This document shows positions 7,291 to 47,353 of a stretch of 64,000 nucleotides of DNA, piece after piece. The stretch covers positions 256,001 to 320,000 of the forward strand of contig CAVPSJ010000017.1 in assembly GCA_963708295.1 (NCBI GenBank). Direction: 5' to 3'. The notes below the pieces were generated by a model, which did not search any database, was not told where the DNA came from, and saw only the letters and a program-made list of their open reading frames with translations. How positions within the stretch are numbered: position 1 is the first letter of the stretch; each line of letters opens with the position of its first letter. The translations under genes were made by a program, and so were the position numbers. Source of the DNA: an uncultured delta proteobacterium. Lineage in GTDB: Bacteria > Desulfobacterota > BSN033 > UBA1163.

Positions 7291-7313
7291 TGTCAATATT
7301 TAAGTCTGACCCC
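7291..7313 (-). repeat. Inverted copy of the array-repeat terminal motif
   Basis: Reverse complement GGGGTCAGACTTAAATATTGACA resembles the repeat left end GGGGTCGAATCTTTATCCTTGAC. Confidence 0.5.
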
Positions 7314-7317
7314 ACGC

Positions 7318-7968
7318 TTTCCCTCTAAGGATGCTGAGCCCTGGGGAGATGCGAAGCGTCGTGCCACCGAGTGGTTGGAGGATATACAATGGTTTTTCGC
7401 GGACGAGATGGAGCGGCTAGGCTATGGGCGAAAGACATTTGAGATCGCGAGAGATGAAAGAGGTGAACTTATTTTTCATCAAATTTTAAGCCCTTTACTT
7501 AAAAGAGATTTTAACGGAGATTTTGAATCCAGAAAGGAAAACTGCAAAAAAGTGGCTCAAGACTATAGACTCCAAAAGTCGAACCGTAATGACATTGTCG
7601 TATACATCCATGAGTCATGCTCAATCAGCGGAGGGAAACTTGTCGGCGATGGAGCTAAAAGCACAGGAGGCGATGTGTTTCTTGGTAGTTTACATCTCAA
7701 GCTAGCCATAAGAGAATGGCTGTCAGATAATAGTAAGTTCGATGGTAAATGGATATCTTGGATTAGTTCAGAACCTCTGAAGCGCAAAATGTTAAATAAG
7801 CGGGGCAGCGAAGTAGGAGATGTGAGTGGAGCAGCCTTCGGAATTATGACTCACGAGTTGGCTCATTGCTTTGGACTTCAAGATGAAAGAGATAATAAGA
7901 AAATTGAAAAGGTGAACCTTATGCGTTTGGGTACCGACGAATGCGCGGGTATTTCCGGCCTCATTTGA
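7318..7968 (+). pseudogene. N-truncated HExxH zinc-metallopeptidase-like fragment
   Basis: THELAHCFGL motif; frame is open back to the GACCCC motif with no RBS/start. Confidence 0.55.
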
Positions 7969-8268
7969 CAAATGGTCGATGTATTATCAGCGAAGAGAGC
8001 GCGAAGATTTTTAACAAGACAGACCTCTTTGCGGTAAGAAGGCTGAAGAGGGATGATCCCGTTGCACGTTAACCAGCGATACCATCAAAGAGGATGTGGG
8101 GCAGGAGTATTCTCCAAGGAGCAAGCGTAACAAAAACCGCTTGAACAAGCGGTTTTTGTTACGTCCTCGCCCTGATTGTTAGCACCCGGCACTGGACGGT
8201 CGAACCTAAATGATGGTATTATTGGGACAATTTGATCAAAAGAACAAAGCTGTCTTGAGTAAAATATT

Positions 8269-9522
8269 ATGGGGCCTATCCTTATTTTTGACAAATCGGT
8301 ATTAGAAAGTCTCAATCCGGATGAGGCCATGTGGCTTGATAATTTCTTCCTTTCAAATATTACCCCCCTTTTCTTTGTCGAAACACTCGCTGATTTAGAA
8401 AAGGAAGTTCGGAGAGGTCTTACCCCCGAACAGGTAGTCGGGAGTCTGGCTTATAAAACCCCGGAATGGGGAAAACCAAATGTGCATCACCAAGCGCTGG
8501 TTGAAGCAGAATTGAGCGGCGTGGGTTCAATGGACATGGAATACGGTCGGCCGCATATTCCAGGTGGACGGGTTGTAGAATTAGAACACAAGACCGGGGT
8601 CATCTTTCAACCCTCTCCCGAGGAAGAAGCTCTGTCTCGATGGCAGAAATATCAATTTCTGGATCTGGAGCGGCTGCTTGCCAAGGTTTGGAGGCGGGGT
8701 CTTTCAGGAATTAATTTTGATGAAATCTATAGAGTTTATCAGGCATTTTATCCGATAGGTAAGGCGAAAACGTTCGCTGATGTTAAGAAATTCGTTGACT
8801 TTCACATTGCCAGCCCAGACCAGGAGCGTCTTCTTCTGTTTGGGCTTTCCCTTATTGGGGTATCTCCTCAGTTTCAGGCTGAGATCATAAAGAGATGGAG
8901 AAATAACGGGAAGCCAAAAATCAAGGACTTTGCTCCTTACTTTACACACGTTTTTTCCGTGGATTTTTTCTTTAACCTCGCTATTGCATCGGATCTAATC
9001 AGTCGAGGTAGGCCAAGTCATAAGATTGATCTTGCCTACTTGTACTACCTGCCATTTTGTATGGTTTTCACTTCAAACGACAACTTTCACGCTGATATTG
9101 TGCCTTTCTTCTTGCGAGATAATCAGTCCTTCGTTACTGGGACCGACCTGAAGGCAGATTTGGCCAATTTAGATAAATACTACAGCGCCTTTCCTAAAGA
9201 AGTAAAGGAGCGCGGAGTAATGAGTTTCGCGCACCACCCTCCTCACGATAATTCGTTCCTGACTACCCGGCTGTGGGATAAACACATGGCCACAGATTGG
9301 CGTGAAAAACTAACAACCACCCCAAAACCAGAGGGTCAGGCGGGCAAGAAGATTATTGATGAGATACGGCGGTTTGAAAAAGAAGGGATCCCAGTTTCTG
9401 AGCAAGATCGTGTCGGTAGCGATAAAACTGACATCATGTTAATAAAAAGAATGGTCCGAGCAAAAAAGGGAAAATGGACTCTCTTTCCCCTGGAGGTATT
9501 AAAACGACTGGACTCTGATTAG
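8269..9522 (+). CDS. Hypothetical protein (417 aa)
   Basis: Long uninterrupted AT-richer ORF; no family recognised. Confidence 0.75.
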   Translation: MGPILIFDKSVLESLNPDEAMWLDNFFLSNITPLFFVETLADLEKEVRRGLTPEQVVGSLAYKTPEWGKPNVHHQALVEAELSGVGSMDMEYGRPHIPGGRVVELEHKTGVIFQPSPEEEALSRWQKYQFLDLERLLAKVWRRGLSGINFDEIYRVYQAFYPIGKAKTFADVKKFVDFHIASPDQERLLLFGLSLIGVSPQFQAEIIKRWRNNGKPKIKDFAPYFTHVFSVDFFFNLAIASDLISRGRPSHKIDLAYLYYLPFCMVFTSNDNFHADIVPFFLRDNQSFVTGTDLKADLANLDKYYSAFPKEVKERGVMSFAHHPPHDNSFLTTRLWDKHMATDWREKLTTTPKPEGQAGKKIIDEIRRFEKEGIPVSEQDRVGSDKTDIMLIKRMVRAKKGKWTLFPLEVLKRLDSD

Positions 9523-9591
9523 GGGGACGTTCGTGCGGGGCATGCCTGAAGATTTTTATATTTCAGCCTTACCTCCCCTGGGAATGCCTCT

Positions 9592-9786
9592 GAGATCGAA
9601 TCTTTATCCTTTCCCTATATTTCACGAAAGTTTCCTTTTCACCCCAGACTTTTCCCCTGAAAACGAAGAAATATCTGCACCGCCACCCTGCGGATTTCTG
9701 ATTGGAATATACATATTTTATGAGAGTTGGTCAACCGAAACTTTCAGAAAAAAAAGAGTCAAAGAAGGTGGGCTGGTTGTTCCACC
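9592..9786 (-). repeat. Array repeat copy 1
   Basis: Matches consensus ..CCTATATTTCACGAAAG..GAAAACGAAGAAATATCTGCACCGCCACCCTG..GATTGGAATAT..TTGGTCAACCGAAACTTTCAGAA. Confidence 0.95.
9706..9734 (-). promoter_or_regulatory. sigma70-like promoter inside the repeat (example copy; present in most copies)
   Basis: Minus strand TTGACC-N17-TATATT; other copies have -10 variants TATACT or TATTCT with the same spacing. Confidence 0.75.
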
Positions 9787-9924
9787 TCCTACTAACCCAC
9801 GCCGTTGGTTTGCGGGGAGAAAACCAATTATTTATTGAAAGCAAAAACAGAGGTTCAGGATGAATAGACAACTTTTGCCTCGCTGTGGAGATACTGCATC
9901 CGTTCTTGCGAAAATGAAAGAAGG

Positions 9925-10957
9925 TTAAAAATCATTGATCGAATCAATAAGACTCCTGAGCCTGCCGAAGTCCTTGCGGTTAAAGTCTATCACAAGTCGC
10001 GGCAGATGAATAACATCCGCATCATCCATTTCAGCTTCCAAAGCCTCGGACGCCGCGATTCTTCCCCCGGGCAGAATGATGTCATGAAACTGATCTGTCA
10101 GCTTCTGGATGTCATCGGGGCCGAGCTGAGATGTGAGCCGGATCACGAGTTGGCCATGCACATACCGCATGCTGTGATAGCGGAAATAGAAATGCTGAAT
10201 CTTCTCCACCGCATCATCCACGGAACATACCCGTTCAAAGAGCGCAAAGTCCGATGGGCCAATATAGTTACGAGCCAGGAGCTCTTCCTCGAAGAGCTTG
10301 ATCAGGTGGGACCAGTAGGAACATTCAGGATCGTCCACGAGCACAAGCGGCATGGGATTGCGTTTGCCGGTTTGTACCAGGGTGAGCGTCTCCATCGCCT
10401 CGTCGAGCGTGCCAAAGCCGCCCGGGAAGAGCGCCACGGCATCCGCTTCTTTAAGGAAGGCAACTTTGCGGTTGAAAAAATATTTGTACGTGATGAGCCG
10501 CGGGTTACCCTCGATCACGGAATTCGGCTTCTCCTCGAACGGCAAGCGGATGTTCACACCGAAGGAATGCTCGGCGCCGGCTCCCTCGTTGACGGCCTGC
10601 ATGATGCCTCTTCCTCCGCCGGTGATGACCATATAACCAGTCTCAGCGAGCTTTTTCCCGAAGAGCTTTGCCATCTCGTAGATCGGATCGCCCGGCTGGG
10701 TGCGCGCCGAGCCGAAGACCGTGACCTTGCGAACATTCCGGTAGGAGCCGAAGACCTTGGAAGTGAACCGCATCTCCTTCAGCGTCGTGTTCATGAGCTT
10801 GAGGTCCGCGCCCTCGTCGTCCTCCTGCCCGGCCTTTGAGTGAGGCGATGATCATTTCGCGGACGTATTTCGGCCTCCGGATGCCCCCGGCGGTCTCCAT
10901 CAATTTCTCGATGATCTCGTCAATGGGACCGTTATTTTTTGTGAAATAAATTTTCAT
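9925..10957 (-). CDS. LOG-family (TIGR00730-like) protein, frameshift near 10835
   Basis: VTVFGSART, ITGGG.GIM and PGGFGTLDE motifs; N-terminus MKIYFTK.. lies in the adjacent frame. Confidence 0.9.
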
Positions 10958-11103
10958 GATTTCTCTGTTATCGTGTAGGTACCTGCTTTGATGATAAGCC
11001 TTTTTTAGTCTTTTTTCGAGAAAGATGATGGATTTTCCCCTCTGAACCGTCTCGCCCACTCCATAAAATGGGGACACATACCACTTTCCTTTTTGAGATC
11101 TCC

Positions 11104-11298
11104 GGGGTCGAATCTTTATCCGTAACTTTGCCTATATTTCACGAAAGTTTCCTTCTGACCTCAGGTTTTTTCCCTAAAGCGAAGAAATATCTGCGCCGCC
11201 ACCCTGTGAATTCCTGATTGGAATATATCTATTTTACGGAAATTGGTCAACCGAAACCTTCAGAATGGAAGATTCAAAGAAGCGGGCTGGTTGTTACA
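11104..11298 (-). repeat. Array repeat copy 2
   Basis: Full-length match from GGGGTCGAATC to GGGCTGGTTGTTACA. Confidence 0.95.
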
Positions 11299-11420
11299 AT
11301 TACAGAGAGCTATGAGGGCGGGGATTGCGTGTGAATAAGCCGTTTAAGCCCACCAATAAAACAGGTCAAGATTAGACGGCGCATTCTGCCCTTCATTCTC
11401 TCATCTCTAAAAATCTCTCC

Positions 11421-11948
11421 TCAATATCCCCCGGGATTGACAAGATCAATCATGACATACCCTAATCTTGGGAGATCCCTGTGCTCGAAGGGAAGAGGCA
11501 GTTTATATTTATACGGATCCGGAATCCCCGACTCGAATGTAAACGGAAAAACCGCTATGTTGCTTTCGTTACCCGTTTTGTCGAGAATGGAAACCTTTAA
11601 GGTAATGCTTGTCCACTCGCTGATATATCCAGCTTTTGAACTGTAGGTATTCCATTGAACATATCCTCGAAAGTGCTTCCGAAATTGCGGCTTGAGGTAG
11701 ATCCAATCGGTGGGGTAACGACCTTGGCCGGGCCCATCCGCCACTAAGGCGATTCTAAGCATATTTTCATCGGGATCGTCTGCCTCGATGTAAATTCTCC
11801 AGATATACCCGTAATATCCCTTCTCGACCGCAAAGGCATGGGTAATCACGGGTGCTCTCGTCTCTGATTTAGGTTGCGCCCATCCTGAAGACGCCATGAG
11901 GAGAACCAATAACAATGCACCGACAAAGTAAAGATTATTTTGATTCAT
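11421..11948 (-). CDS. Hypothetical secreted protein
   Basis: AAGGAG RBS, signal peptide, 175-aa ORF. Confidence 0.75.
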   Translation of the reverse strand: MNQNNLYFVGALLLVLLMASSGWAQPKSETRAPVITHAFAVEKGYYGYIWRIYIEADDPDENMLRIALVADGPGQGRYPTDWIYLKPQFRKHFRGYVQWNTYSSKAGYISEWTSITLKVSILDKTGNESNIAVFPFTFESGIPDPYKYKLPLPFEHRDLPRLGYVMIDLVNPGGY

Positions 11949-12131
11949 GCTCGCTCCTTAAACTAAAATTAAGAACTCAAAGTCTCAATTTCAAGGTAGT
12001 AAAAGGCGCTAAGATTGGGGGCAAACGAAGAGAGGTCGGGCTATCCATTTTGAAATAAGGCTAAGACCTTCTCCCACTCTTCACTTTGAGGTAACTCGAT
12101 TAAGTTGACGATGAGGAATGAAAATTTGCAC

Positions 12132-12161
12132 AAAAAAAGCAGAGCCAATTCTGACTCTGCT
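12132..12161 (-). terminator. Rho-independent terminator
   Basis: GCAGAG/CTCTGC stem followed by a T7 tract on the minus strand. Confidence 0.6.
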
Positions 12162-12419
12162 CTGCTCCTGCTCACTCAATCCTTAATTTAAACAAGATTT
12201 GTCTAAGTTCTTAGGTTCTATGTTTTCCCAGTCCCCCTTGCATAATCCACCATACCTTCAAAGTCAACGACAACCACGGACTCATCTCCAACCACCCAGG
12301 CGTCGTGCCCTGTCGGCAGCACGGGGACATCCACTGCTTGTACTCTATTTCGGTACCATCATCCATCCTTACCCTCAAAGTTCCGGATACGTGATACTGG
12401 AAATGAGGAAAGTGGTTCT

Positions 12420-12619
12420 GGAGTCGAATCTTTATCCTTGACTTTGCCGATATTTCACGAACATTTCCTTCTGACCCGAGGCTTTTTCCCCCTGAAAACG
12501 AAGAAATATCTGCGTTGGCGCCCTGTTGATTCTTGATTGGAGAATACAAATTTTATGAGAGTTGGTCAACCGAAACTTTCAGAAAGGAAGATTCAAAGAA
12601 CTGGGCTGTTTGTTTCACC
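12420..12619 (-). repeat. Array repeat copy 3
   Basis: Full-length consensus match. Confidence 0.95.
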
Positions 12620-12733
12620 TCGATTTCGCCAGGTATACCTTAGAACTTATTCTTGTCATCTCATCCACTTTACTCAGAGTTAAGGCTCGAGGGTAATAGT
12701 GTCAGTTAAGAGTCTGCTTAACTGTATATGCCC

Positions 12734-13885
12734 TTAAAGTTTCAAAACCTTTCTGGCGATGTTGACCCTCTGAATTTCTGAGGTCCCTTCCAGAATCTCC
12801 TCAAATTTTACCTCACGCCAGTAACGGGAGATCGGATATTCATCCATCAATCCGTATGCTCCATGGATTTGGACCCCCCTGTCAGCACATCGTTTGGCTG
12901 TCTCCGATGCAAAAATCTTTGCAAAAGTGGAAGTGGCAAAATAGTTCTCATCCTGATCTTTTTGCCAGGCAGCTTTATAAACCATCAATCTTGCTAATTC
13001 GATCTCCATCAACATGTCCGCCAACTTAAATCGAATGGCTTGAAATTCACCGATGTTTCTGCCAAATTGCTTTCTTTCCTTCGCATAAGCCAATGAAACA
13101 TCTAAGATGGCCTGAGCCAATCCCACAGAATGGGCAGCAAACCCAATTCGACTGGTCTGGAGAGCCATCAGAAATTGGGAGATTCCTTTATCGGGGTTCC
13201 CCAAAATATTTTCTTTTGGAATACGGCAGTCATCAAAAATCAGCTCCCTAGTCTCTGAGGACCGATATCCCATCTTTTTATACTTCTGCCCAAAATTGTA
13301 ACCGCCCACCCCTGTCGGGATGATGAAATTGGAAGCCTTCTTCTTTCCTTTCTCTCCCACCCCGGTCACGGCGGCAATGATTACCAGACTATTATGCCTA
13401 AGTCCTGCATTGGTGATGAATTGTTTGGTTCCGTTGATAACCCATTCATCTTCCTCCAAGACCGCTCTCGTCTGAATAGCACTGGTATCTGAACCCGCCT
13501 GAGGCTCCGTCAAACCAAATGCCCCAATCTTTTCCCCTGTGGCCAATGGCATGAGCCATTTCTTTTTCTGCTCCTCTGTTCCGAAGGTGCAGAGGAGATT
13601 CATCGCGAGCGTGACAGAATCTAAAAGGGAGTTTCCCAAGGAGGCATCTCCTCGACTGATCTCCTCGATGGCGATGATCATGGAAAGCCAATCTAATCCC
13701 CATCCTCCGCATTCCTGAGGAAAGGGAATGCCGCAAATCCCCAAATCGCCCATTTTTTTCCATACACCATAAGGGAATTGACCGGTTTTATCCAGCTCCT
13801 CTGCGATGGGCATAATTTCTTTTTTAGCAAAATTCCTGCACAAATCCTTGACCATCACTTGTTCAGCGGAAAGGTTAAAATCCAT
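12734..13885 (-). CDS. Acyl-CoA dehydrogenase
   Basis: GAFGLTEP.AGSD, INGTKQFITN, RKQFG, VQIHGAYG, ILEGTSEIQR. Confidence 0.96.
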   Translation of the reverse strand: MDFNLSAEQVMVKDLCRNFAKKEIMPIAEELDKTGQFPYGVWKKMGDLGICGIPFPQECGGWGLDWLSMIIAIEEISRGDASLGNSLLDSVTLAMNLLCTFGTEEQKKKWLMPLATGEKIGAFGLTEPQAGSDTSAIQTRAVLEEDEWVINGTKQFITNAGLRHNSLVIIAAVTGVGEKGKKKASNFIIPTGVGGYNFGQKYKKMGYRSSETRELIFDDCRIPKENILGNPDKGISQFLMALQTSRIGFAAHSVGLAQAILDVSLAYAKERKQFGRNIGEFQAIRFKLADMLMEIELARLMVYKAAWQKDQDENYFATSTFAKIFASETAKRCADRGVQIHGAYGLMDEYPISRYWREVKFEEILEGTSEIQRVNIARKVLKL

Positions 13886-14000
13886 ATGTTCTTCTCCTTA
13901 CATGGAAAATAGGTTTTGCCAAATCATTAATTCAAATCCGAGGGGATAAAATGATCGGGAGGAGTTAATGCATCCTGGGGACGGTCCTTATATTCTGATC

Positions 14001-14109
14001 GAAGCTCCCCGCCCACGGGGCGGGGCTTCCCGGCATTGTATAATATCATTCATATTGTGCCCCTTAACCCCGCCTATCCCGCAGGGAGCGGGACGGGGCA
14101 CGTTCCGGC
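14001..14109 (-). mobile_element. IS200/IS605-like miniature (PATE-type) element, copy A
   Basis: Reverse complement of the 46618-46714 element; two GC hairpins, ends GAAGCCCCGCCC..GGGCGGGGAGCTTC. Confidence 0.7.
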
Positions 14110-14168
14110 CAATGACAATTAGATACAAACTTTTTTATTGATCTCGCCATTTCCGATTATGAGTGTTA

Positions 14169-14364
14169 GAGGGCAAATCTTCATCCTTGACTTTCCCCAT
14201 ATTTCACGAACATTTCCTTCTGACCCCAGGTTTTTTCCCCTGAAAACGAAGAAATATCTACACCGCCACCCTGCGGATACTTGATGGGAATATACATATT
14301 CTATGAAAATTGGTCACCGAAACTTTCAGGAAAAGGAATAAAAGAAGCGATTTGTTTGTTACAC
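14169..14364 (-). repeat. Array repeat copy 4
   Basis: Full-length consensus match. Confidence 0.95.
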
Positions 14365-14486
14365 GTAATGTTCAACTCAGCATAGTTTGTGAAGCCAACC
14401 GCTATAAAGATGTTTTTTGACAAAGAGTTGTCGATAGGATTTGGGGTTACCCATTTGTTCCCCATTTGTTACAAGGGGTCATTTAG

Positions 14487-14909
14487 TCACTGACTCCCGT
14501 CCGTCGCTGCAAGTCTTTTTAAAATCTCTTTTATCATGCCGTTTCTGTCCTTCCGGATTTCTCCTGCAAGCCGATGAACACGTTCCGGAATTTCGAAATA
14601 TTCGTTACCCCATAAGATGATTTCAAAGAGGATAGGCATGAGATCGATCCCCTTGGGAGTTAATTGGTAAAGGTTTTTTGCCTTATTTCCGGGAAAGGCT
14701 CTTTTTTCGACGATCCCGTTCTTTTCCAGAGTGAGTAGACGATCGGCAAGGATATTCGTCGCGATCTTTTCTTCGGATTGCAAAAACTCGCCGTACGTTC
14801 TTTTTCCTTTGAACATCAGGTCCCGTATGATCAGCAGTGTCCACTTATCGCCCAAGATGTCGAGAGTGGTACTGATAGGACACGTCGATCTCCTGGTGAG
14901 TTTCTTCAT
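14487..14909 (-). CDS. HxlR-family winged-helix regulator
   Basis: RSTCPI..LDILGDKWTLLIIRDL..Y.LT.KG.DL.P. Confidence 0.92.
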   Translation of the reverse strand: MKKLTRRSTCPISTTLDILGDKWTLLIIRDLMFKGKRTYGEFLQSEEKIATNILADRLLTLEKNGIVEKRAFPGNKAKNLYQLTPKGIDLMPILFEIILWGNEYFEIPERVHRLAGEIRKDRNGMIKEILKRLAATDGSQ

Positions 14910-15056
14910 ACTTAAAGAATATACGAATTACTTGCATAAAACAAGTAGATGTTTTATATTACTTGCAATTCGCAAGTATGTCGCCGGGAGAACTCATGGT
15001 CATAAAGCCGGATATGTGCTTCAGAAAATTGATTGTCAGAAGGAGGAGTTATGGTT

Positions 15057-16295: not shown

Positions 16296-16330
16296 AACTA
16301 AAGCTGCACGACCCTTTGCATCGTCCTGTA

Positions 16331-38427: not shown

Positions 38428-38567
38428 TTACACTGTTCGTTGAGAGATATCATGGAAAACAATGATGACGGGTCGAAATGTGCATGAGTATAACCGAAAA
38501 AACCAAGAGGAGTGGGCTATGGTCAACAACCCACTCCTCCTTGCTTACCGGACACGATCACTTTCGT

Positions 38568-39599
38568 TTAGGCCGAGATGATATATCTCGTACCAACCGT
38601 ATTCAATATAAACTGATCGGGCATCTCTCGCGCGAAAGCCCCGACGGCCTCATACCCTGTACAGTGGATAGGGACTATATAGTCTGGTTGTATGGCCTTG
38701 ATATCCGCAATGGTTTTCTGAATGAGTTCAGGTTTGGCCCCTGTTAAGTGGAACCCTCCAACGACTAGGTGAACCTTCTCGGTGCCGGTCATCCTTTGAG
38801 CCTGCTTCACCGTATTCACAATCCCTCGATGGGCGCACGCGGAGAGCACGACCAATCCCTTCCCTTTGGCATTGAACACGATCGCCTGCTCTCCGATAAA
38901 ATCCTCCTGAACATACTCATCTCCTCTCTTCTTCACGAACATAGGCGGTATCTTTTCATAATCCGTGACTTGCTCAACCCTGCCTGCCAGGTAGGCCCCC
39001 TGAACGATGGGCGTGGGTGCCTTTACCTCTGTAATCTTGACGAGGCCCAACCCCTCAACGTCCTCCCTTTTCAACGCGAAGATGCTTCTAATCTTACCAT
39101 CGGGCATTCTCATATAGGTTCCTACAAAGAACTGCTCTCCCACGTAAAAGGGGATACCCCGGGGAATCTCTTCCCGCTTTGCCTTAAGAAGTTCTACCAG
39201 GGCTGCCTGGTGGTCACGGTGGTCATGGCTCAAGGCTATGGCCTCGATATTCTTTAGGTCTAGCTGCAGTAACTCTATATTATTTTTCATCCCCTGAGCA
39301 TCACTCGCAAAATCGAAGAGAAAGGAATGAACCCGGCCCTCCACAGTGGTCTCCACATGATATGCCAGGCCGTGCTCGCCATGCAGTCCGCGATTGGTCG
39401 TGGCTGCATATCTCTTCGCTATCTTATAATCCGGTCTGAGTGCGTCGGCGTAGTTGTCCGTGATGACGGTGATGACTATCTTCTCCGCTTCGGGTATCTT
39501 GACTGTTCCTTGCGCAAAGGCACGGTTCCGAAAGATATCGCCTGTCAAAAGGACAGTGCTGGTAACTGCTGTAGTCTTCAAAAAATCCCTTCGATTCAT
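38568..39599 (-). CDS. MBL-fold metallo-hydrolase with Tat signal
   Basis: NRRDFLK, GEHGL, SHDHRDH, CAHRGIVN, GGFHL, HCTG. Confidence 0.92.
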   Translation of the reverse strand: MNRRDFLKTTAVTSTVLLTGDIFRNRAFAQGTVKIPEAEKIVITVITDNYADALRPDYKIAKRYAATTNRGLHGEHGLAYHVETTVEGRVHSFLFDFASDAQGMKNNIELLQLDLKNIEAIALSHDHRDHQAALVELLKAKREEIPRGIPFYVGEQFFVGTYMRMPDGKIRSIFALKREDVEGLGLVKITEVKAPTPIVQGAYLAGRVEQVTDYEKIPPMFVKKRGDEYVQEDFIGEQAIVFNAKGKGLVVLSACAHRGIVNTVKQAQRMTGTEKVHLVVGGFHLTGAKPELIQKTIADIKAIQPDYIVPIHCTGYEAVGAFAREMPDQFILNTVGTRYIISA

Positions 39600-39679
39600 T
39601 TCTTTTAACATATATATACACCCCCTTTCTTGGGCATCTAAGAGCATTAATGGATTCTCGCGAAATAAGAGATCCCCAG

Positions 39680-39795
39680 AGAGTCAAAAGCCTCCAAAGG
39701 GATAGTCAATTCCCTTGGAGGCTTTTGACTCGGAACCTCTGGAAGTCCCTTTTCATAGCCCTCTCCAAAAGGTTGAGGTTAGGTTGTGAGGTTGG
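39680..39795 (-). promoter_or_regulatory. Leader with 16-codon uORF (39756-39706) and long hairpin, copy 2
   Basis: GGAG plus ATG, MKRDFQRFRVKSLQGN*; stem GAGTCAAAAGCCTCCAA/TTGGAGGCTTTTGACTC. Confidence 0.55.
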
Positions 39796-39887
39796 CTTTC
39801 AAAAACGATGTGATTTAATAAGAGGGTACTGATTCTAATTGAAAAAGTCAACAAGAATTATTCAAGAATTATTGGTTAGAATTTGCG

Positions 39888-40817
39888 TTACGGGGTCACT
39901 TTTGGCCGATGGAAACTGAGATATGCGCGCCTTGCGGTCCAACTGTAACTTCCCTTAAGGGGTCCCCCTTGAACTTCGACATTGCCTTGAATGGTATCAC
40001 TACGGATGCGTCCATTGAGGCGCATTACGGCGTTCTGTTTATCAGTTCTATCTCTAAAAGTAAAACTCAATTGATCTCCCATTAAGCGGGCATTACCCAT
40101 GGGGATTTCTTGACCCTTGATCATCACATTACCACTGACTTCCTGGAATTGCTGATCAAGACGTAGGACGTAGTCACGCATGCCCGTTGACGTGGTCAGG
40201 GTCCAGCACCACGTGCCGGCGGCATCTGCAGGGATGACCCAATAATAATAATTGGTATCTTTTGTCGTAGGATTGGGTTTGTAATAAAGCTTGACGTTAT
40301 GAACCGTCCCCATGTTGTCTGGTTTCCAGTCATCCATGTCAAATTCATGAGACACGATGCGGGTGCCGGGCCTGAGTTCGCGAAATAGCTTGGGCCGGAG
40401 TCGCAAATTCAATTCAGGATAGAGGTAAAGGGTGACGACAGTCGCTTTGCTTATGTCGGTCTTGAAGAGATCCTGCTCAATGAACTTCAGACGGTCAGTC
40501 ACTCCAGCTTTCCGGGCATTCTCGTTGCTTTCCTTAATACGAACTGGATCGATGTCCACGCCGACACCACGAGCGCCGAAAACTTTCGCTGCCGTGATGA
40601 CGATACGACCGTCTCCACACCCAAGATCATAGACAATATCGTTCGGGGTCACTTTCGCCATTTTGAGCATCTCTATGACAACCTCTTCGGGGGTTGGTAC
40701 GTAATTCACATCAGGTTGGCGTTCCTGGCTGTACCCTGTGACGCAGGATATCCAAACGCTTACTATGAGAATGATGGACAAGGAAACGCGTTCAAACCAG
40801 ACCATTTTCTCCTCCAT
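39888..40817 (-). CDS. Class I SAM-dependent methyltransferase with signal peptide and C-terminal beta domain
   Basis: DV.YVPTP, YDLGCGDGRI, RIVSHEF. Confidence 0.9.
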   Translation of the reverse strand: MEEKMVWFERVSLSIILIVSVWISCVTGYSQERQPDVNYVPTPEEVVIEMLKMAKVTPNDIVYDLGCGDGRIVITAAKVFGARGVGVDIDPVRIKESNENARKAGVTDRLKFIEQDLFKTDISKATVVTLYLYPELNLRLRPKLFRELRPGTRIVSHEFDMDDWKPDNMGTVHNVKLYYKPNPTTKDTNYYYWVIPADAAGTWCWTLTTSTGMRDYVLRLDQQFQEVSGNVMIKGQEIPMGNARLMGDQLSFTFRDRTDKQNAVMRLNGRIRSDTIQGNVEVQGGPLKGSYSWTARRAYLSFHRPKVTP

Positions 40818-40830
40818 TTGCTGGACATTC

Positions 40831-41021
40831 GAGGCCGAATCTATTCTTTACTTTGTCTGTATTCCACGAAAGCCTTATTCTGACCCCCGTTTATTTCCGG
40901 GAAATGAAGAAATGTCTGCGCCGCCCCCCTGCGAATTTCTGATTGGAATATATAAATGTTATGAAAATTGGTCAACCGAAACTTTCAGAGAGAAAGAGTC
41001 AAAGAGGTGCCCCCCTTGTTA
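40831..41021 (-). repeat. Array repeat copy 18
   Basis: Degenerate full-length match. Confidence 0.92.
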
Positions 41022-41040
41022 GGTGTATGTCGCCGATGGG

Positions 41041-41985
41041 TTATCGAAACCCATAATAGTTGGCAACCTGCTCGGCAATTCGACCGATGGCGTCCTCAAG
41101 GTAGGGACCGATGCCGTAGTGATGGGCCGTAAAGATCGAGAGCACGACGTGAGACTTCTCACTTTCAAACAGTCCCACATCATTGGCGATAAAGGGCAAG
41201 AAATCGCCCGTCTTATGGGGCACGACATAGCCCGTCACATACTTGGGAATACGGGTTCCATAAATCTGCCCACGCATGATGGTCAGCATCTGCTCGCTTG
41301 CCTTCCGACTCACAGCTTTTCCACGGGAGATTTTCTCGAGCAGTTTTCCCGCGTCCCGTGCGGAGGAGAGCCCGAATGGCGTCTTTCCCTCAGCATGAAA
41401 AGCAGCCGCATTCGGGGCGGCCTGCAACGCAGTGAACCAGGCCTCGGTAGTCCCGGTGGCTCGAATCGTTTTCAGGCCATAGCTCTGCATTAATTTGTTC
41501 ACGGGTTCAATGCCGCCGACCTTTTCAAAAAGAATATCGGTCGCGGAGTTGTCACTGAGGATGTTCATCAGGACGATCAGATCTTTGATCGTCAAAGTGC
41601 CGCCGTCGGCGAGGGTCCGGATAATCCCGGTTCCGGGTCGTTTGTCTTGGGCTTGGATCGTGTAGCGATCGTCTAAGGAGAAGCGGCTTGCTTCGATCTG
41701 ACGGAAGACTTCAACCATGAGGGGAAGCTTGATCACACTCATCGTGTCCATCGTTTCATCCGCGTTGATGGCGATTTCCTCATCGGTTTCCAGGCATTTG
41801 ATGTAAATCCCCCACTGGGCATCCACACTCTTGCTGATCCGTTCGATGTTCGAGCGCAGACGCTGTAGAGGTGTCTGGGGTGGTGACTGTTGGGCGTCGA
41901 GGGGCTTGCTCAGGGAAAAAAGCAAGAAGACACAGAAAGCGAGTCCAACGCGGTGAACCCTTGCCGAACCCGAGCGGATCATCAT
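41041..41985 (-). CDS. Class A beta-lactamase-related serine hydrolase
   Basis: SVIK (SxxK), SDN and KTG motifs; signal peptide. Confidence 0.88.
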   Translation of the reverse strand: MMIRSGSARVHRVGLAFCVFLLFSLSKPLDAQQSPPQTPLQRLRSNIERISKSVDAQWGIYIKCLETDEEIAINADETMDTMSVIKLPLMVEVFRQIEASRFSLDDRYTIQAQDKRPGTGIIRTLADGGTLTIKDLIVLMNILSDNSATDILFEKVGGIEPVNKLMQSYGLKTIRATGTTEAWFTALQAAPNAAAFHAEGKTPFGLSSARDAGKLLEKISRGKAVSRKASEQMLTIMRGQIYGTRIPKYVTGYVVPHKTGDFLPFIANDVGLFESEKSHVVLSIFTAHHYGIGPYLEDAIGRIAEQVANYYGFR

Positions 41986-42018
41986 GAAGTGGTGCTCCTT
42001 ACATGGATCTGGGGACCT

Positions 42019-42216
42019 GGGGCCAAATTTTTATTCTTGGCTTTGCCTATATTTCACGAACATTTCCTTCTGACCCCAGGCTTTTTCCCTGAAAACGAAG
42101 AAATATCTACGCCGCCACGCTTCCGGATTCCTGATGGGGAATATATCTATTTTATGAACATTGGTCAACCGAAACTTTCAGAGAGAGGCTCACATCAGTG
42201 GGCTGCTTGGAACACC
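42019..42216 (-). repeat. Array repeat copy 19
   Basis: Full-length consensus match. Confidence 0.95.
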
Positions 42217-42277
42217 TACCGATCCTTGATATCGGCTAATATCGGCTATTGAAGATTATAGTTTGAAATGTGGAAAT

Positions 42278-42307
42278 AAAAAGGCAGGCTCAAATTGGGC
42301 CTGCCTT
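42278..42307 (-). terminator. Rho-independent terminator
   Basis: AAGGCAGGC/GCCTGCCTT stem plus T tract. Confidence 0.75.
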
Positions 42308-42418
42308 GGATGTCTGATTGACAGGATTAATTATATCTACTGCCTTTCTGAATTGCCATAATCTTACTTCAATTTAAATTCGAGGTAGCTTACCTCTGCC
42401 TATTGGCATGTCCAACCG

Positions 42419-44275
42419 CTACTTCGGAATTACAGGTACCTGCAGATAGGAGTCGTACTTGCCACCGGTGTAGATGATGTGCTCGCCCTTGTTGATCAGC
42501 CAGTCGTAGTAGAGCAACGGGTGATCCGCCACCGGGCAGTGGCCCTGGACGTACAGGCGCAGGCTCTCTCCCTTGCGGAACAGGGTGCTCGAAGGAAGAA
42601 TGGCGATCTCTACCGGCACGATTTCACCCGGCTTCAGCTTTTTCTCGCCCTGGACCTTCGGGACCGGCTGCCAGGGGGTGGACAACTTCTCGTCCAGCTC
42701 CCTCTGGGAGACCCTCATCTGGCCTCTGGCAACCATATCAGAGTGATGGCCGTTCATGCCGCGGAACTGGATTTCGTTGCCCTTCGCTATACGTTCCTTC
42801 CCGACTACCTCCTCGAGGGACCTGCAGGTCGGAGTGTCCGCATCACAGGGACCTGCGAACTTTTTGACCGCCACGAAGAGGTCCATGTCATCGGCATCCT
42901 TGGCCGATACCCACAGCTTGACCTTGATGTAGCCCGTTAGCTCGGTGTCCTCGTCAAACGTGATGCCAAAGGACGCATCGCCGCCCTGCGTTGAGTTGTA
43001 CACTGCCTTTGCGTCCTTTCCGGGTTTCGGAGTCAGGGAACCGTTTCGGGCATTCAGGTAGAGCTTCTTGTATTGCGTGCGGGCCAGGGGGAAATCGTTC
43101 TCAAGACGAACTTGATACTCATCCCGGGTCTCGCGGATCTCCATCCGGACCCGTGGTGTATCCTTCCATCCGTTTTCTATGCCTTTAAGATAATGATCGA
43201 AGAACTTCTTCTGGTACTCAAGACCATCCTCACTATAAAACCGATCCCATTTGCTGCCGCCGTGAGTATAAAGCCACTTTTCCTTGGAGGCGATCCTCCG
43301 AAAGACCTCGAAGGTGCCCCGGGTGTGAAGACCCTTATCCGACCAGCTGGCACAGATCAAGGCAGGAACGGTGATGAGATCGAGCCTCGGATTTCCCTGC
43401 ATCATCTTCTGATTTACAACGGGGTCCATCGCGGCGGCCCAGGCCTTTGCGGCCTGATCAGGAGGCATCTTCTCCACGGATTCCTTGAAAGGGCCGAGAC
43501 TTTGCGAGAAGTTTGTTTCAGGAATTCCCCCCCAAAACAAGATATCCCTGTAACGGTCTGATGCGCCTTCCCAAGGAATGATCGCCTTGAGGTGAGGCGG
43601 CGGTGGCTGATGGCTGGCCGCGTAATATTGGTTGGTGGCCAGCGCGGACACACCCACCATACCCACGTTGCCGTTGCTCCATTCCTGGACGGCGGCCCAT
43701 TCGATCAGGTGAAATAAGTCATCCCCGCCCTGGACAGGACTCGGCGGCTTTCCCTCAGACTTAAAGCCGCCCCTTTGATCGACGATTATGACCACGTAGT
43801 CGTTCGGTACCCAGAAGGCAGGATCAGGACCTTCCCAAGGCGTGAGCATGGATATTTTCATGTGGCCGAGATCAGCGCCATGCGCATGAACCCTGTACAT
43901 AAAAGGGGTATATGCGTTTGGAAGAGGGGAGCCATCAGGTTTATAACTGGGAGGAGTTTGATCCTTCCCGTAAGGTGTCATGGACAGGATGACGGGAAAC
44001 TTTCCGGATTTGTCGGGACGAAAGACGTTGCACGCCAACTTGACGCCGTCCGGCATGGTCACCATTACGTCTTTTTCGATCCGCAATCCGTCAGGGGTAG
44101 GGATGATTTGATAAGGAAGGAATCCGTCGGGGCTAGGGCGCGTTTCATAGGGATTACTGGTAGGGTGGTCAATGGCCGAGGAAACTGCTGACACGAACAC
44201 GAGGCAAGCAACAATCAGCATGGTAAGGGGAAATATCCTGGATTTCCTCCGGTTAGAATAAACGTTTTTGCTCAT
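42419..44275 (-). CDS. CocE/NonD-family hydrolase, secreted
   Basis: MPDGVKL, TPYGKD, WSNGNVGMVGVSA, IPWEG. Confidence 0.93.
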   Translation of the reverse strand: MSKNVYSNRRKSRIFPLTMLIVACLVFVSAVSSAIDHPTSNPYETRPSPDGFLPYQIIPTPDGLRIEKDVMVTMPDGVKLACNVFRPDKSGKFPVILSMTPYGKDQTPPSYKPDGSPLPNAYTPFMYRVHAHGADLGHMKISMLTPWEGPDPAFWVPNDYVVIIVDQRGGFKSEGKPPSPVQGGDDLFHLIEWAAVQEWSNGNVGMVGVSALATNQYYAASHQPPPPHLKAIIPWEGASDRYRDILFWGGIPETNFSQSLGPFKESVEKMPPDQAAKAWAAAMDPVVNQKMMQGNPRLDLITVPALICASWSDKGLHTRGTFEVFRRIASKEKWLYTHGGSKWDRFYSEDGLEYQKKFFDHYLKGIENGWKDTPRVRMEIRETRDEYQVRLENDFPLARTQYKKLYLNARNGSLTPKPGKDAKAVYNSTQGGDASFGITFDEDTELTGYIKVKLWVSAKDADDMDLFVAVKKFAGPCDADTPTCRSLEEVVGKERIAKGNEIQFRGMNGHHSDMVARGQMRVSQRELDEKLSTPWQPVPKVQGEKKLKPGEIVPVEIAILPSSTLFRKGESLRLYVQGHCPVADHPLLYYDWLINKGEHIIYTGGKYDSYLQVPVIPK

Positions 44276-44340
44276 TTAAATACCTCCTTTTTGATAAGAT
44301 TTGATAAGAATTCCCTTCAGGGGGAGCATTCTGTGTATAT

Positions 44341-44538
44341 GGGGTCGGATCTTTATCGTTTGCTTTGAGTATATTTAACGAAGGTTTCCTTCTGACCTCA
44401 GGCTTTTCCCTCGAGAATGAAGAAATATTTACACCGCCACCCTGTTGATTGCTGATTGAAATATATCTATTTTATGAACATTGGTCAATCGAAACTTTCA
44501 GAAACGAAGTGTCCAAGAAGTGGGCGGTTTGTGGCACC
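44341..44538 (-). repeat. Array repeat copy 20
   Basis: Full-length consensus match. Confidence 0.94.
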
Positions 44539-44750
44539 TGCAAGTCCTTATCTTTAGATCGAACACAAAACTGAGGGTTATTGGTTAAAATCTTGAATAG
44601 AGGATTGGCGAGTTATCAGCCCATAGGAGAATGGATTAGGCAATGGGGGCCTGGATAGAAGTGAGGGGGGTTGGGACATGCGATGTCATGGCCGCAAGCC
44701 AATCGAGAGCATCACTCTCTCGTCGTTTCAAAGGCATTTACTCGCATCGC

Positions 44751-45437
44751 TCAGCTAATGAGCACTGCAAGGATCTTCGCAGGCTTACCTCCGTGAGCTT
44801 TCACCAAATGCATGCTCGTTGAATCGTAGTAGACAGAGTCTCCGGGTTTCAGGATGTCTCTGGTGTCCTCTATGACGACTTCCATTTCGCCATCCAGGAC
44901 GTAGATGAACTCCTGCCCGTCGTGCGAAGAAGGCTCATCGGCTCCGGAGGAATGGAGCGTAACAATGAATGGCTCCATCGCCCGATCTTTCTTTCCGGCA
45001 GCCAGGGATTCGTATTCGTATCCGCAGCTGGCCTCCCTGGCTTTTCCGAATCGAGAAAAACTCAGACGCTGATCCGATCTCACGATGGTAAACGACTCTT
45101 TGCCTGTAGATATGACATCCGCCATCCGAAGAGAAAGGGCCTTGCTGAGTTTAATTAGCTGCCCCAGAGGCAGCATGAACTCACCGACTTCAACTCGGGC
45201 CAGCGCGTCTCGCGAAATGCCGGTTCTTGCGGCCAACTCGTCAAGGGAAAACCCGCGCTTTTCCCGGGCTGCGCGGAGCATATCCCCGTGGCTCACCGCC
45301 TTTTCGCGTTCCGCTTTTTCGCTGGCCTTTGCGATAGCGGCAGGGTCAGTGAGAAAGTCGGGTCCCTTGTCTTCGCCGCAGTCTGACGCTGTCTCTTGAA
45401 ACTCTTCGTAAGACATCGCGTTTTTTTTCTCATCCAT
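44751..45437 (-). CDS. XRE-family HTH plus cupin regulator
   Basis: LR.ARE.RG.SL.ELA HTH; MEPF, H.GQEFIYVL.G, GDS.YYDS..H. Confidence 0.92.
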   Translation of the reverse strand: MDEKKNAMSYEEFQETASDCGEDKGPDFLTDPAAIAKASEKAEREKAVSHGDMLRAAREKRGFSLDELAARTGISRDALARVEVGEFMLPLGQLIKLSKALSLRMADVISTGKESFTIVRSDQRLSFSRFGKAREASCGYEYESLAAGKKDRAMEPFIVTLHSSGADEPSSHDGQEFIYVLDGEMEVVIEDTRDILKPGDSVYYDSTSMHLVKAHGGKPAKILAVLIS

Positions 45438-45515
45438 GTTTGATCCTTTCAGCCGCTGTGTATGGCACGCTGTCTCCTGGCGCAGTCCTACATGGATCTG
45501 CCGGCAAATGGCTCT

Positions 45516-45705
45516 GGGGTCGAATCGTTATCCTTGACTTTGCCTATATTTCGAAAAAGTTTCCTTCAGGTTTTTTCCTCGAGAATGAAGAAATGTTTAC
45601 ACCGCCACCCTGTTGATTCCTGATTGGAATATATCTATTTTATGAAAATTGGTCAACCGAAACTTTCGGAAAGAGAGACTCAAGGAAGTGGGCTGTTTGT
45701 TACAC
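45516..45705 (-). repeat. Array repeat copy 21
   Basis: Full-length match with a short internal deletion. Confidence 0.95.
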
Positions 45706-46055
45706 TCCACAAGGAGTGGGGATCGGTCTGCACTAAGGGTTGATGATTTCATTAGAAATCTGGAATAGCGATGTGGATTCCCAACTTGTTAACTTCAGCA
45801 AGAAGTCACCAAGACGCCTGACAGTCCGTAGGGTTGAACATAAGTCTTTCCAGAATAATCCCGAGACAGGGTCATTCTACGGCTCGTTCCTGGACTTCTC
45901 CGGTTTCGCGGAATAGTTCGTCCCGCTCACAATAATCAACTTGGCTCAATAGATTCCCAACCTTTACGGAGATCAGGGGGTGATACCCTAATTATAAAGT
46001 TCTCCCAAACTCCTAGACCTGACACTAGACCCACTACCGAGGTGAAGCCAAGTCC

Positions 46056-46559
46056 TTATGCCTCCCGCATCTTCATCTTCCAGGTAAACGTAAAACGGGC
46101 AACCTCCTCTCCCGCCTTTGAATATCCAACCGTTTTGCACAATACCTCCTGAGGTTCGCCCGTGTTTATCGCCTTTCTTACCGTTTCGGCTATGCGCTTT
46201 CCGTCATTACAGACAAACGTCGTAAGACCCCTGGCTTTGGCGACGAACTCTGCGGAACAATCACCCACAATGATGGAAACAGAAGGGTGGAGCTGATAGG
46301 TGTACATCTTAACCAATGCGCCGGTGCTCATCTCCGCCGCCATACCCAATACGGCCCAGAACGTCGACTTAAAAGGGTTTTTGTTGAGCCATCTATATGG
46401 AACGGAGACTTTACACGATTCTTCACTTAGTTCTCTGAGTCTCATTCCTATCATGAAGTTTATAGGTACCTGGAAAAGCAGCACGATCTTGAAGAGCACG
46501 CGGTTGTTCAAGATCCGCCGAACAAACTTTAATTTCTTCTCATCAAATTGAAAATCCAT
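46056..46559 (-). CDS. DUF4442/hotdog-fold thioesterase-like protein
   Basis: PYRWLNKNPFKST.WA...MAAE.STG..F..KA.G. Confidence 0.8.
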   Translation of the reverse strand: MDFQFDEKKLKFVRRILNNRVLFKIVLLFQVPINFMIGMRLRELSEESCKVSVPYRWLNKNPFKSTFWAVLGMAAEMSTGALVKMYTYQLHPSVSIIVGDCSAEFVAKARGLTTFVCNDGKRIAETVRKAINTGEPQEVLCKTVGYSKAGEEVARFTFTWKMKMREA

Positions 46560-46596
46560 GCCCTTCCTTGCATAGGTTCTTGTATCGGGGGTTCTG

Positions 46597-46822
46597 GGGG
46601 TCAAACTCTTATCCTTGGCCGGAATGTGCCCCGTCCCGCCAAAGCGGGGTCGAGGGGCACAATATGAAAGAAACTTCCTCTCCGGGAAGCCCCGCCCTGT
46701 GGGCGGGGAGCTTCACTTTGCCTATATTTCACGAAAGTGTCCTTCCGATCCCAGGCTTTTTTGCCTGAAAACGAAAAAATATCTGCGCCACCCCCCTGCG
46801 GATTCCTGATTGGAATATACAC
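46597..46822 (-). repeat. Array repeat copy 22, interrupted by a 97-bp element
   Basis: ATCCTTG|insert|ACTTTGCCTATATTTCACG restores the consensus exactly. Confidence 0.93.
46618..46714 (+). mobile_element. IS200/IS605-like miniature (PATE-type) element, copy B
   Basis: Clean insertion with no target duplication; subterminal hairpin CCCCGCCC-TGT-GGGCGGGG followed by AGCTTC. Confidence 0.75.
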
Positions 46823-47353
46823 TTCGAACAGGCGAAACAGGGGATTGAAGGGGCGATCGTGGTCGCCTCCCGTTTCGCAACTCTCTTTAGTTTTGTCTCA
46901 GACCATTTTACCGGAGGAGATTTTGGAACCAATCCCCTCGAATTGATCTTGTATCCCGGCAAGATGGAAGTTGCCTACTTTACAAGCTCTTCATTAAACA
47001 GAACGATGAAATTTGGGGTCTATCTTCCTCCCGGATACTCGAAAAGCAGAACAGATTATTATCCTGTCCTCTATCTCGTCTTAGGTTACAATATGTCCGT
47101 CGATGGCATGACCAATTCTTGGATGAAATCAGTTCTTGATGGTCTCATCCTAACCGATGAGATGCAGAAGGTGATTATTGTCATCCCGGATGGATTAAAT
47201 TACAAGAATCAAAGGGAGCAGTTCTTCGTCAACCAGATCGACCGAGAACGAGGGGACAAATTCAGAGGACTATTTCTTCGACCTGGTCACTTTTATCGAC
47301 ACCTACTACAAAACGAAATAGACCTTAAATCGGGGCATCTACCTTCTCATTGA
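46823..47353 (+). pseudogene. Fragment of a putative esterase (alpha/beta hydrolase)
   Basis: F.S..L.R....VYLPPGY....YPVLY..G..IIVIPDG; no nucleophile motif and no proper start. Confidence 0.7.

Follow-up and report, generated by a model that had tools for sequence, protein, structure and literature searches.

A genus-level array of promoter-like direct repeats with mostly whole single-gene units in an uncultured delta proteobacterium

The window analysed here, a stretch of 64,000 nucleotides (nt) from an uncultured delta proteobacterium of soil (GenBank assembly GCA_963708295.1, contig CAVPSJ010000017.1, positions 256,001 to 320,000), harbors a long array in which a non-coding repeat of about 210 nt recurs between units of unrelated genes. 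The source bin (G000) comprises 4.9 Mb in 20 contigs, with the window at G000:C17:256001-320000; C4, C12, C14, C15, C17 and C20 denote contigs of this bin, and G003, G004, G006 and G010 denote genomes of relatives. Repeat finding and nhmmer revealed 27 direct copies between 9586 and 59536, all in one orientation, and a whole-genome nhmmer search recovered just two further partial copies, C12:110623-110708 and C4:588203-588312. No tRNA or tmRNA was found in the window, and most of the array flanks displayed no DNA match to the relatives. The copies are given below with their extent on the repeat model; in the preliminary description of this DNA the copies starting at 20498, 22726, 33714 and 46711 by nhmmer were likewise numbered 9, 11, 16 and 22.

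9586..59536, functional strand minus: whole array, 27 repeat copies and 26 inter-repeat units (nhmmer, repeat finding, open reading frames, Pfam)
9586..9788, minus: copy 1, model 3-208, full; promoter-like site at 9734-9706
11100..11302, minus: copy 2, model 5-208; in the promoter scan
12413..12622, minus: copy 3, model 2-209; in the promoter scan
14164..14367, minus: copy 4, model 4-208; in the promoter scan
16159..16295, minus: copy 5, model 13-163, without the upstream D part; in the promoter scan
17042..17189, minus: copy 6, model 77-208, without the distal leader; in the promoter scan
18076..18228, minus: copy 7, model 55-207; in the promoter scan
19663..19866, minus: copy 8, model 5-208; used as query for relatives
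20498..20706, minus: copy 9, model 3-201; a PilZ reading frame terminates within it
21595..21762, minus: copy 10, model 3-168, truncated upstream of the promoter
22726..22790, minus: copy 11, model 97-147 only; takes the place of the HigA 3' end
23935..24116, minus: copy 12, model 6-175; in the promoter scan
26122..26211, minus: copy 13, model 90-179, promoter part only
29482..29690, minus: copy 14, model 3-209
32047..32246, minus: copy 15, model 3-209
33714..33874, minus: copy 16, model 3-166
38358..38431, minus: copy 17, model 138-209
40827..41023, minus: copy 18, model 5-204
42013..42219, minus: copy 19, model 3-209
44335..44542, minus: copy 20, model 3-210
45509..45708, minus: copy 21, model 2-208
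46711..46820, minus: copy 22, model 26-134, promoter lost; leader end split by a hairpin-element insertion at 46619-46714
48354..48475, minus: copy 23, model 5-128, promoter lost
50078..50283, minus: copy 24, model 2-206
53649..53738, minus: copy 25, model 94-183
56363..56499, minus: copy 26, model 72-206
59458..59536, minus: copy 27, model 108-189, promoter part only

On the minus strand, the repeat consensus exhibits five parts in a fixed order: an upstream block (GGTGTAACAAACAGCCCAC); an invariant palindrome (CTGAAAGTTTCGG) that touches the -35 box; a sigma70-like promoter pair, TTGACC-17 nt-TATATT; a conserved leader of about 130 nt (length taken by eye from the consensus), which contains GGGTGGCGGTGCAGATATTTCTTCG and, about 114 nt past the first palindrome, a second palindrome, GAAACTTTC; and a terminal GATTCGACCCCAG. 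In the alignment of 34 copies from 6 genomes, the invariant columns were those of the palindrome and the -35 box. Pairwise repeat identity ranges from 60 to 96% over 56 to 193 nt, and the genes downstream are unrelated. A consensus scan for promoters and terminators, which covered 9000-28000 with 13 repeat copies and was compared with shuffled sequence, revealed a TTGACC-17-TATATT-like site in 12 of the 13 copies, agreeing with the consensus at 9-10 of 12 positions; promoter-like sites over this interval numbered 37, against 23.5 ± 5.0 in the shuffles. No stem-loop terminator was flagged in the upstream part of the 13 copies, and one weak site was located at the leader end of copy 5. Rfam at gathering thresholds returned no match in the window. 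A riboswitch-like structured leader was rejected, as RNAalifold on the 34 copies gave -2.16 kcal/mol with 13 pairs and no compensatory change, and no attC-like end-to-end hairpin was found, the single-stranded DNA folds of copy 8 displaying local hairpins only on both strands (z = -1.7 and -2.1). Since conservation acts at the level of sequence and peaks in the palindrome and the promoter boxes, the repeat fits a putative shared promoter and operator, and neither an RNA element nor a recombination hairpin; we infer its promoter activity from the consensus match.

The palindromes GAAAGTTTC at the -35 box and GAAACTTTC in the leader, as at 19663-19866 (minus strand), are among the best conserved columns, and their spacing of about 114 nt suggests a dimeric regulator with two operators, with DNA looping as a guess. 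Behind an AGGA motif, the leader may also encode a peptide of 8 codons, as at 19700-19740 (minus strand; GTG AAA TAT AGG CAA AGT CAA GGA TAA), and its frame is retained in many copies, with mostly non-synonymous substitutions. The partial copy at C4:588203-588312 is a solo promoter part (model 100-209) lying about 45 nt upstream of an unrelated ORF (open reading frame) of 111 amino acids (aa), indicating that the promoter module occurs outside arrays too.

Differential truncation was observed among the copies. The outer boundary lies at model position 201 or beyond in 17 of the 27, truncation upstream of the promoter affects the other 10 at scattered model positions from 128 to 189, and truncation on the leader side affects 9; copy 22 merely appears leader-truncated, through an inserted GC-rich double-hairpin element. 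This element of about 100 nt, which looks like a MITE (miniature inverted-repeat transposable element) or REP-type (repetitive extragenic palindromic) element, is present at 13998-14118 (minus strand) and 46619-46714 (plus strand) and in at least 15 copies genome-wide, and at the latter site it splits CCTTG/ACTTTG within the leader end of copy 22.

The cargo of the array is mostly composed of hydrolase, oxidoreductase and regulator genes. Pfam was scanned with 66 window ORFs, 44 of them counted inside the array, and 37 of these 44 are minus-strand genes that follow a repeat, with domain coverage mostly complete. The enzymes include an acyl-CoA dehydrogenase, two nitroreductases, two S15 peptidases, a carboxylesterase, a class A beta-lactamase-family protein, an MBL-fold protein, a methyltransferase, an OYE-type reductase, a PNPOx protein and an MddA-like methyltransferase, accompanied by DoxX, HbpS-like, Usp and MFS proteins and by HxlR and XRE-cupin regulators. 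Single-gene units are spaced 0.8-4.5 kb apart. Repeat and start codon are separated by 9-464 nt, and a stop codon and the repeat that follows it by 17-347 nt; this wide variation indicates that the units bring their own untranslated regions. Cut genes number about 5 among about 47 ORFs and are mostly antisense to the array: 4 cut against 6 whole genes were scored on the plus strand and 2 against 36 on the minus strand (Fisher p = 0.013), a picture unchanged by a recount that gave 35 whole genes on the minus strand. The arrays of G010, in which 115 ORFs were scanned for domains, carry the same kind of cargo, such as tannases, S53 and S8 peptidases, serine beta-lactamase-family proteins, aldo-keto and OYE reductases and molybdoenzymes, together with MarR and TetR regulators, PIN toxin-antitoxin pairs and two insertion sequence (IS) families.

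The repeat family was detected in 11 of the 14 other genomes of the genus and in 2 of the 10 other genera of the family, forming arrays at several loci per genome, and it was absent from all 16 searched genomes of other families. A scan with an exact pattern returned multi-copy matches in bins labelled uncultured Thermodesulfobacteriota, 'delta proteobacterium' and Syntrophales, and the single matches in unrelated phyla look like chance. Few of the window units recur in 20 array stretches sampled from five relatives. The recurring ones are the HxlR and Fer4_16 unit (92.5% to G010), the XRE-cupin unit (93.2% to G010 and 92.7% to G004), a HigA piece (91-92%), a GIY-YIG unit (88-91%) and an RHH-PIN unit (87%), whereas a 7.4-kb rpoB locus shows 82.7% identity to G010, G006 and G004 and 84.9% to G003. 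The shared units have other neighbours from genome to genome, and between G004 and G010 the unit order is changed, with two units residing in different arrays. Unit identities above that of the rpoB locus, differing neighbours and reordering together point towards horizontal exchange and shuffling of units.

Breakpoints of homology were examined in 14 array pieces from 7 genomes. Among 181 block ends, 57 (31%) lie near a repeat edge, that is, within 75 nt of it, compared with 9.3% of positions; in the window itself the count is 7 of 13 against the same 9.3%, so that homology to other loci does stop at or near repeat edges, the point that the preliminary description had proposed to check. Derivation of all segments from one contiguous ancestral locus, which it had named as a refutation, is contradicted by the different relatives of the segments. 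In unmasked identity profiles, the stop of homology coincides with the repeat edge in some cases and in others lies 20-70 nt outside or 35-170 nt within the repeat, and these variable stops, like the scattered truncations, indicate that there is no single crossover point. At three joints, a piece with a look-alike locus elsewhere in the genome adjoins a truncated repeat. The joints and cut genes, along with the other cargo features referred to below, are as follows.

7330..7968, plus: metallopeptidase-like pseudogene (HELAH); about 18 N-terminal codons and the start missing, C-terminal ~50 residues diverging
14368..16102: HxlR regulator (14487-14909, minus) and divergent Fer4_16 gene (15033-16094, plus), both whole; 92.5% to a G010 array unit
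18396..18976, minus: TlpA/thioredoxin-like gene with in-frame TGA at 18713-18715 (W-A-T-W-U-Q-S-C)
20646..21233, minus: PilZ gene without native stop, 195 aa against its paralogs
21765..22467, plus: RHH antitoxin and PIN toxin unit; promoter-like site at 21773-21802; 87% to a G010 array unit
22471..22725, plus: HigA-like piece (gene 22482-22766), both ends cut relative to the higBA locus on C20 (DNA comparison)
32247..33620, plus: MlaF-like ABC ATPase with GGDEF-like tail (32323-33579, whole) and 15-codon mlaD stub from 33575 (homology)
44548..45489, minus: XRE-cupin regulator unit, whole; 93% to G010 and G004
46823..47325, plus: internal esterase piece of 503 nt; 89.6% to C14:81682-82191, internal to a longer ORF
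48476..49232, minus: 242-aa gene of unknown function; homologous to C15:266206-267277 at 80-85%
50393..52391, minus: OYE-type flavin reductase, frameshift beside a T run; real lesion or assembly error

The preliminary description had reported a series of genes cut at or near repeats, and these observations held. The HigA gene, said to run into copy 11 and to have no higB, is 92% identical over 255 nt to C20:30990-31244, where a HigB-like toxin gene (PF05015) stops two bases short of the homologous stretch and is followed by a 100-aa HigA; in the window a 65-nt repeat fragment (model 97-147) replaces its last ~18 codons, the piece joining a PIN gene upstream and the copy 11 fragment at 22725/22726. 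Intact 100-aa HigA genes, also behind a PIN gene and without higB, are present in the arrays of G010 and G003. The PilZ frame does end inside copy 9: the native stop is absent and the frame continues for 68 codons, so that the window ORF reaches 195 aa, while six in-genome paralogs measure 123-133 aa and stop right after an ...SLS motif. The mlaD-like gene, described as breaking after about 15 codons, starts with MKKYSIETIVGVVVV at 33575 and homology is then lost. The paralogous operon on C4 encodes MlaE, an ABC-GGDEF-like protein, MlaD and MlaC, and no mlaE remnant was found upstream of the window ABC gene; G006 has an MlaF-like unit with 92% aa and 92.8% DNA identity, in which homology also ends at about 33600 with different DNA beyond, indicating that the mlaD cut is old and that the unit has since travelled as a block. 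The esterase fragment begins 2-3 nt past copy 22, which is itself cut at model 134, and the homology of 48476-49232 to C15:266206-267277 likewise begins at the first base past truncated copy 23.

Other statements of the preliminary description needed amendment. The metallopeptidase is indeed a fragment, but its homology begins near 7330 and not at the GACCCC motif at 7313: 7375-7968 aligns to residues 34-219 of a 270-aa homologue, a search limited to sizes of 108-345 aa gave 52 homologues, those listed being mostly ~230-310 aa long, and a weak repeat-like relic (3.3 bits) lies at 7295-7331. The ABC binding protein and MlaF do lack operon partners, but the 60% paralog of the binding protein on C4 is equally solitary, also beside hydrolases, so that the solitude of the binding protein is no evidence of cutting. 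As for segments keeping their own sigma54 promoters and terminators, such sites exist, but as classes they do not stand clearly above chance: sigma54-like sites in the window number 5 (among them 38114, 55648 and 57952) against 1.67 expected, with 3 of 100 shuffles reaching 5, and terminator-like sites number 13 against 21.7 expected and are not enriched, examples being the hairpins at 26298-26264 and 12163-12136; the RHH-PIN unit has an 11-of-12 sigma70-like site of its own. The units are gene-sized genomic fragments and not ORF-precise cassettes, as had been proposed, with their own untranslated regions, regulators and sometimes promoters. The description of the cargo as arbitrarily cut DNA holds for several joints, which do cut genes, but not as a rule, since most cargo ORFs are whole (about 5 cut of about 47); by our own reasoning, random cut points in a gene-dense genome would be expected to put most unit ends inside genes. 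Overall, the observations of the preliminary description are confirmed, its interpretation is partly supported, and its analogy with ISCR elements is not supported.

Two further genes had been considered as cut and were rejected. The 'broken peroxiredoxin' at 18396-18976 carries its TGA at the first Cys of a CxxC motif, at the same position as in the G010 orthologue, and the C4 paralog of this thioredoxin-fold (TlpA/AhpC-TSA-like) gene has Cys there; by sequence, it probably encodes a selenoprotein and is not a broken gene. The molybdopterin oxidoreductase at 24191-24796 has a complete Pfam domain (5-169 of 169) and is only 27% identical to a longer G010 protein, and short proteins of this kind exist.

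Several observations concern neighbouring or individual elements. The array's left edge is marked at 6611-7253 by a multi-copy element of 350-450 nt with an 89-aa ORF and hairpins, present in at least 10 copies in the source genome and many in G010, and its part at 7057-7243 has matches of 88-92% identity in three relatives, including a site that lies 16 kb away from a G010 array. At 7257-7320 lies a further motif, about 60 nt long and with TCTGACCCCAC at its end. Its recurrence at spacings of 1.4-4 kb in both G010:C2:1396948-1407825 and G003:C3:1175749-1183914 resembles that of another repeat family that forms arrays in this genus. The GIY-YIG nuclease-domain gene at 55973-56368 (minus strand) is a single-copy gene in 11 of 15 genus genomes with 79-84% aa identity, and it was rejected as an array-linked nuclease, repeats adjoining only 6 of these 11 loci. 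The MlaF-like ATPases at 32323-33579 (plus strand) and C4:60342-61583, the latter within a complete mlaE-F-D-C operon, both carry a C-terminal GGDEF-like domain of ~170 aa. Tandem paralogs of unknown function (33930-38121, minus strand; 756 and 670 aa, 76.7% DNA identity) form one unit, and the region upstream of them, 38111-38267, contains a sigma54-like site and is 79.6% identical to 62561-62716, the upstream region of a 917-aa deacetylase-caspase-TPR gene outside the array. Non-coding stretches between repeat and gene or between genes at 12130-12409, 31766-32044 and 39690-39861 have look-alikes of 74-88% elsewhere in the genome, and the terminator-like hairpin at 12163-12136 is strong and lies between a repeat leader and its gene. 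The MFS gene at 2152-3509 (plus strand), outside the array, and the OYE-type gene are each split into two overlapping frames, and both splits may be assembly errors.

With moderate confidence, the region is read as a genus-specific, integrase-less array of promoter-led expression units, which are probably reshuffled and exchanged by recombination through the repeats. The repeats would provide portable homology, and units could be swapped, lost or imported by homologous recombination inside them, while new DNA might enter by pairing at one end with a repeat and by an illegitimate join at the opposite end, either by homology-facilitated illegitimate recombination (HFIR) or by shuffling of the type known for the PeSL modules of phages. 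Such illegitimate joins would leave truncated repeats and occasionally cut genes, selection would keep the genes driven by a repeat promoter whole, and antisense passengers, among them the fragments of HigA, mlaD, the esterase and the metallopeptidase, would be debris. Repeat-mediated recombination with illegitimate joining fits the neat joints seen at the ends of repeats, the ragged ones in other places and the truncation of repeats beside foreign pieces. Several points weigh against this picture. Repeats were masked before BLAST, which forced some block ends onto their edges and makes the enrichment an upper estimate, and 69% of the block ends lie away from repeats. No clear microhomology was seen at the three joints inspected. 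A pairwise homoplasy index (PHI)-type test on the repeat alignment, with 114 informative sites, gave no sign of recombination between repeats (1.11 observed against 0.97 permuted, p = 1.0), although it is probably saturated, 57% of site pairs being incompatible. The strand comparison of cut and whole genes has small counts and depends on our own calls of what is cut; the ORFs are mechanical calls made with no gene finder; the compared genomes are all metagenome bins in which assembly errors and frameshifts are possible; and promoter activity, transcription start and DNA-uptake competence are putative. A bolder proposal, which is possible but tentative, is that the arrays represent an undescribed chromosomal gene-cassette system of soil and peat Thermodesulfobacteriota, in which the module of about 210 nt would serve both as expression signal and as recombination handle, placing dozens of genes under one regulator and permitting integrase-less trade between species, possibly by a dedicated mechanism that is unrecognisable at present.

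Alternatively, the array might be a static regulon, in which a promoter-operator was copied in place before resident genes, as a putative mobile promoter or by tandem duplication, with the cut pieces as decay and the units immobile. Conservation that is highest in the palindrome and the promoter boxes is what shared regulation predicts, no recombinase was found among the ORFs of the window and the G010 arrays, the PHI-type test gave no signal, and the spread of unit GC (standard deviation 0.047) is inside the range of random genome chunks (mean 0.036, maximum 0.054), a comparison that is not decisive on foreign origin. Immobile units, however, are hard to reconcile with identities of 91-93% across species against 83-85% for the rpoB locus, with the same unit having different neighbours or residing in another array in relatives, or with the small number of window units that recur in the five sampled relatives, and about 200 nt conserved at 60-90% is far more than a binding site; such a regulon is therefore considered unlikely.

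Direct repeats in a single orientation, the single-gene spacing of 0.8-4.5 kb, toxin-antitoxin units within the arrays, the outer boundary shared by 17 of 27 copies (model 201 or beyond), units abutting within 1-6 nt at 14368 and 44548, and the GTTAGG-like end of some copies would all suit an integron-like cassette system in which the repeat is the target of a dedicated site-specific recombinase that escapes recognition. Against this, the integron integrase model TIGR02249 gave 19 weak matches in the genome, the best at 86.4 bits (cut-off 265), none in the window and the nearest on the contig 77 kb away, and neither the 66 window ORFs contain a tyrosine or serine recombinase domain nor the G010 arrays a constant recombinase. 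ORFs of unknown function were considered as hidden recombinases and rejected, with 12 of 16 proteins lacking an NCBIfam match and the 417-aa edge protein belonging to a widespread hypothetical family. The repeat, as folded for copy 8, moreover forms no end-to-end hairpin on either strand, the truncations of 10 of the 27 copies are scattered over the model, crossover points vary, and conservation extends about 14 nt past the putative GTT, so that site-specific cassettes appear improbable. Least probable is the one-ended rolling-circle capture of the ISCR/IS91 type suggested in the preliminary description, with the repeat as the fixed end. Several units do begin or end at a repeat and break off arbitrarily within a gene on their other side, and the repeat would supply an outward promoter, but no Y2/HUH transposase domain was found among the 66 ORFs of the window and the 115 of the G010 arrays (a genome-wide PF04986 search also gave no match, but carries no weight, as its control gave none either). 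A non-coding promoter-operator-leader module, present 27 times in a single orientation without any copy of a transposase and itself truncated at both ends, is unlike an ISCR and does not behave as an IS end.

If the reading of the array as reshuffled, promoter-led units is true, bacteria outside the integron-bearing groups would have another route to stockpile, express and trade accessory enzymes, in which the shared promoter repeat would offer one control for each captured gene as well as homology for swapping. Capture would then have left its direct traces in the cut pieces, and selection would show in the whole genes of the sense strand, making this a natural system that separates the two. 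It would also carry a warning for annotation, as lone or truncated genes in such arrays, for example an orphan MlaF or a HigA without HigB, would be array debris and not degenerate operons.

A literature search returned no account of such arrays from these bacteria, and the array shares features with several known systems. Sedentary chromosomal integrons and CALINs, the latter being attC clusters without an integrase, hold promoterless cassettes whose boundaries are fixed at a core site, and integron cassettes depend on the Pc promoter; attC sites are imperfect palindromes that pair from end to end as single strands. The present array is like them in its long one-directional layout, mostly single-gene units, toxin-antitoxin units and high turnover between relatives, and unlike them in its lack of IntI (not required for a CALIN) and of attC hairpins, its imprecise boundaries and its promoter-like module at each unit. 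ISCR1 and IS91 elements encode an HUH Y2 rolling-circle transposase, have oriIS and terIS as terminal sequences, pick up adjacent DNA in a one-ended manner and have outward promoters. Such pick-up would leave cut cargo beside a fixed end, whereas here no transposase and no IS copy is found and the repeat is non-coding and itself truncated. In HFIR (PMC3240628), homology serves to integrate one end and the opposite end joins illegitimately, so that a neat joint and a ragged one are predicted. HFIR is a general process and not a system. Putative mobile promoters (Nijveen, Matus-Garcia and van Passel 2012, PMC3575422) are similar upstream regions before unrelated genes, have no Rfam match and spread by a mechanism described as unknown, their families being mostly pairs scattered in the genome. 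The array repeat shares the similar upstream regions before unrelated genes and the absence of an Rfam match, and its copies, with 60-96% identity over 56-193 nt before unrelated genes, also fall under the definition of such promoters (80% identity or more over 50 nt or more before non-homologous genes); it differs in its 27 copies in one oriented array and in the occurrence of arrays across the genus. The PeSL modules of T4-type phages (Arbiol et al. 2010, PMC2839356) are mobile promoter-bearing regulatory cassettes that shuffle without a known dedicated recombinase, and exchange between two neighbouring ones forms mini-circles. The array shares with them a repeated intergenic module with a strong sigma70-like promoter (here a consensus match only) and modules flanking non-essential genes in hypervariable regions where gene content differs between relatives; gene turnover bounded by modules, by which PeSL are recognised, is seen here in the 57 of 181 block ends and in the reordering between G004 and G010. 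The differences are the bacterial chromosome as location, the length of about 210 nt, the long leader with its palindrome and the lack of a terminator stem-loop. The array thus resembles a sedentary integron in layout while failing the defining tests of that family, and by analogy it may work like PeSL shuffling and like an extreme, clustered form of putative mobile promoters.

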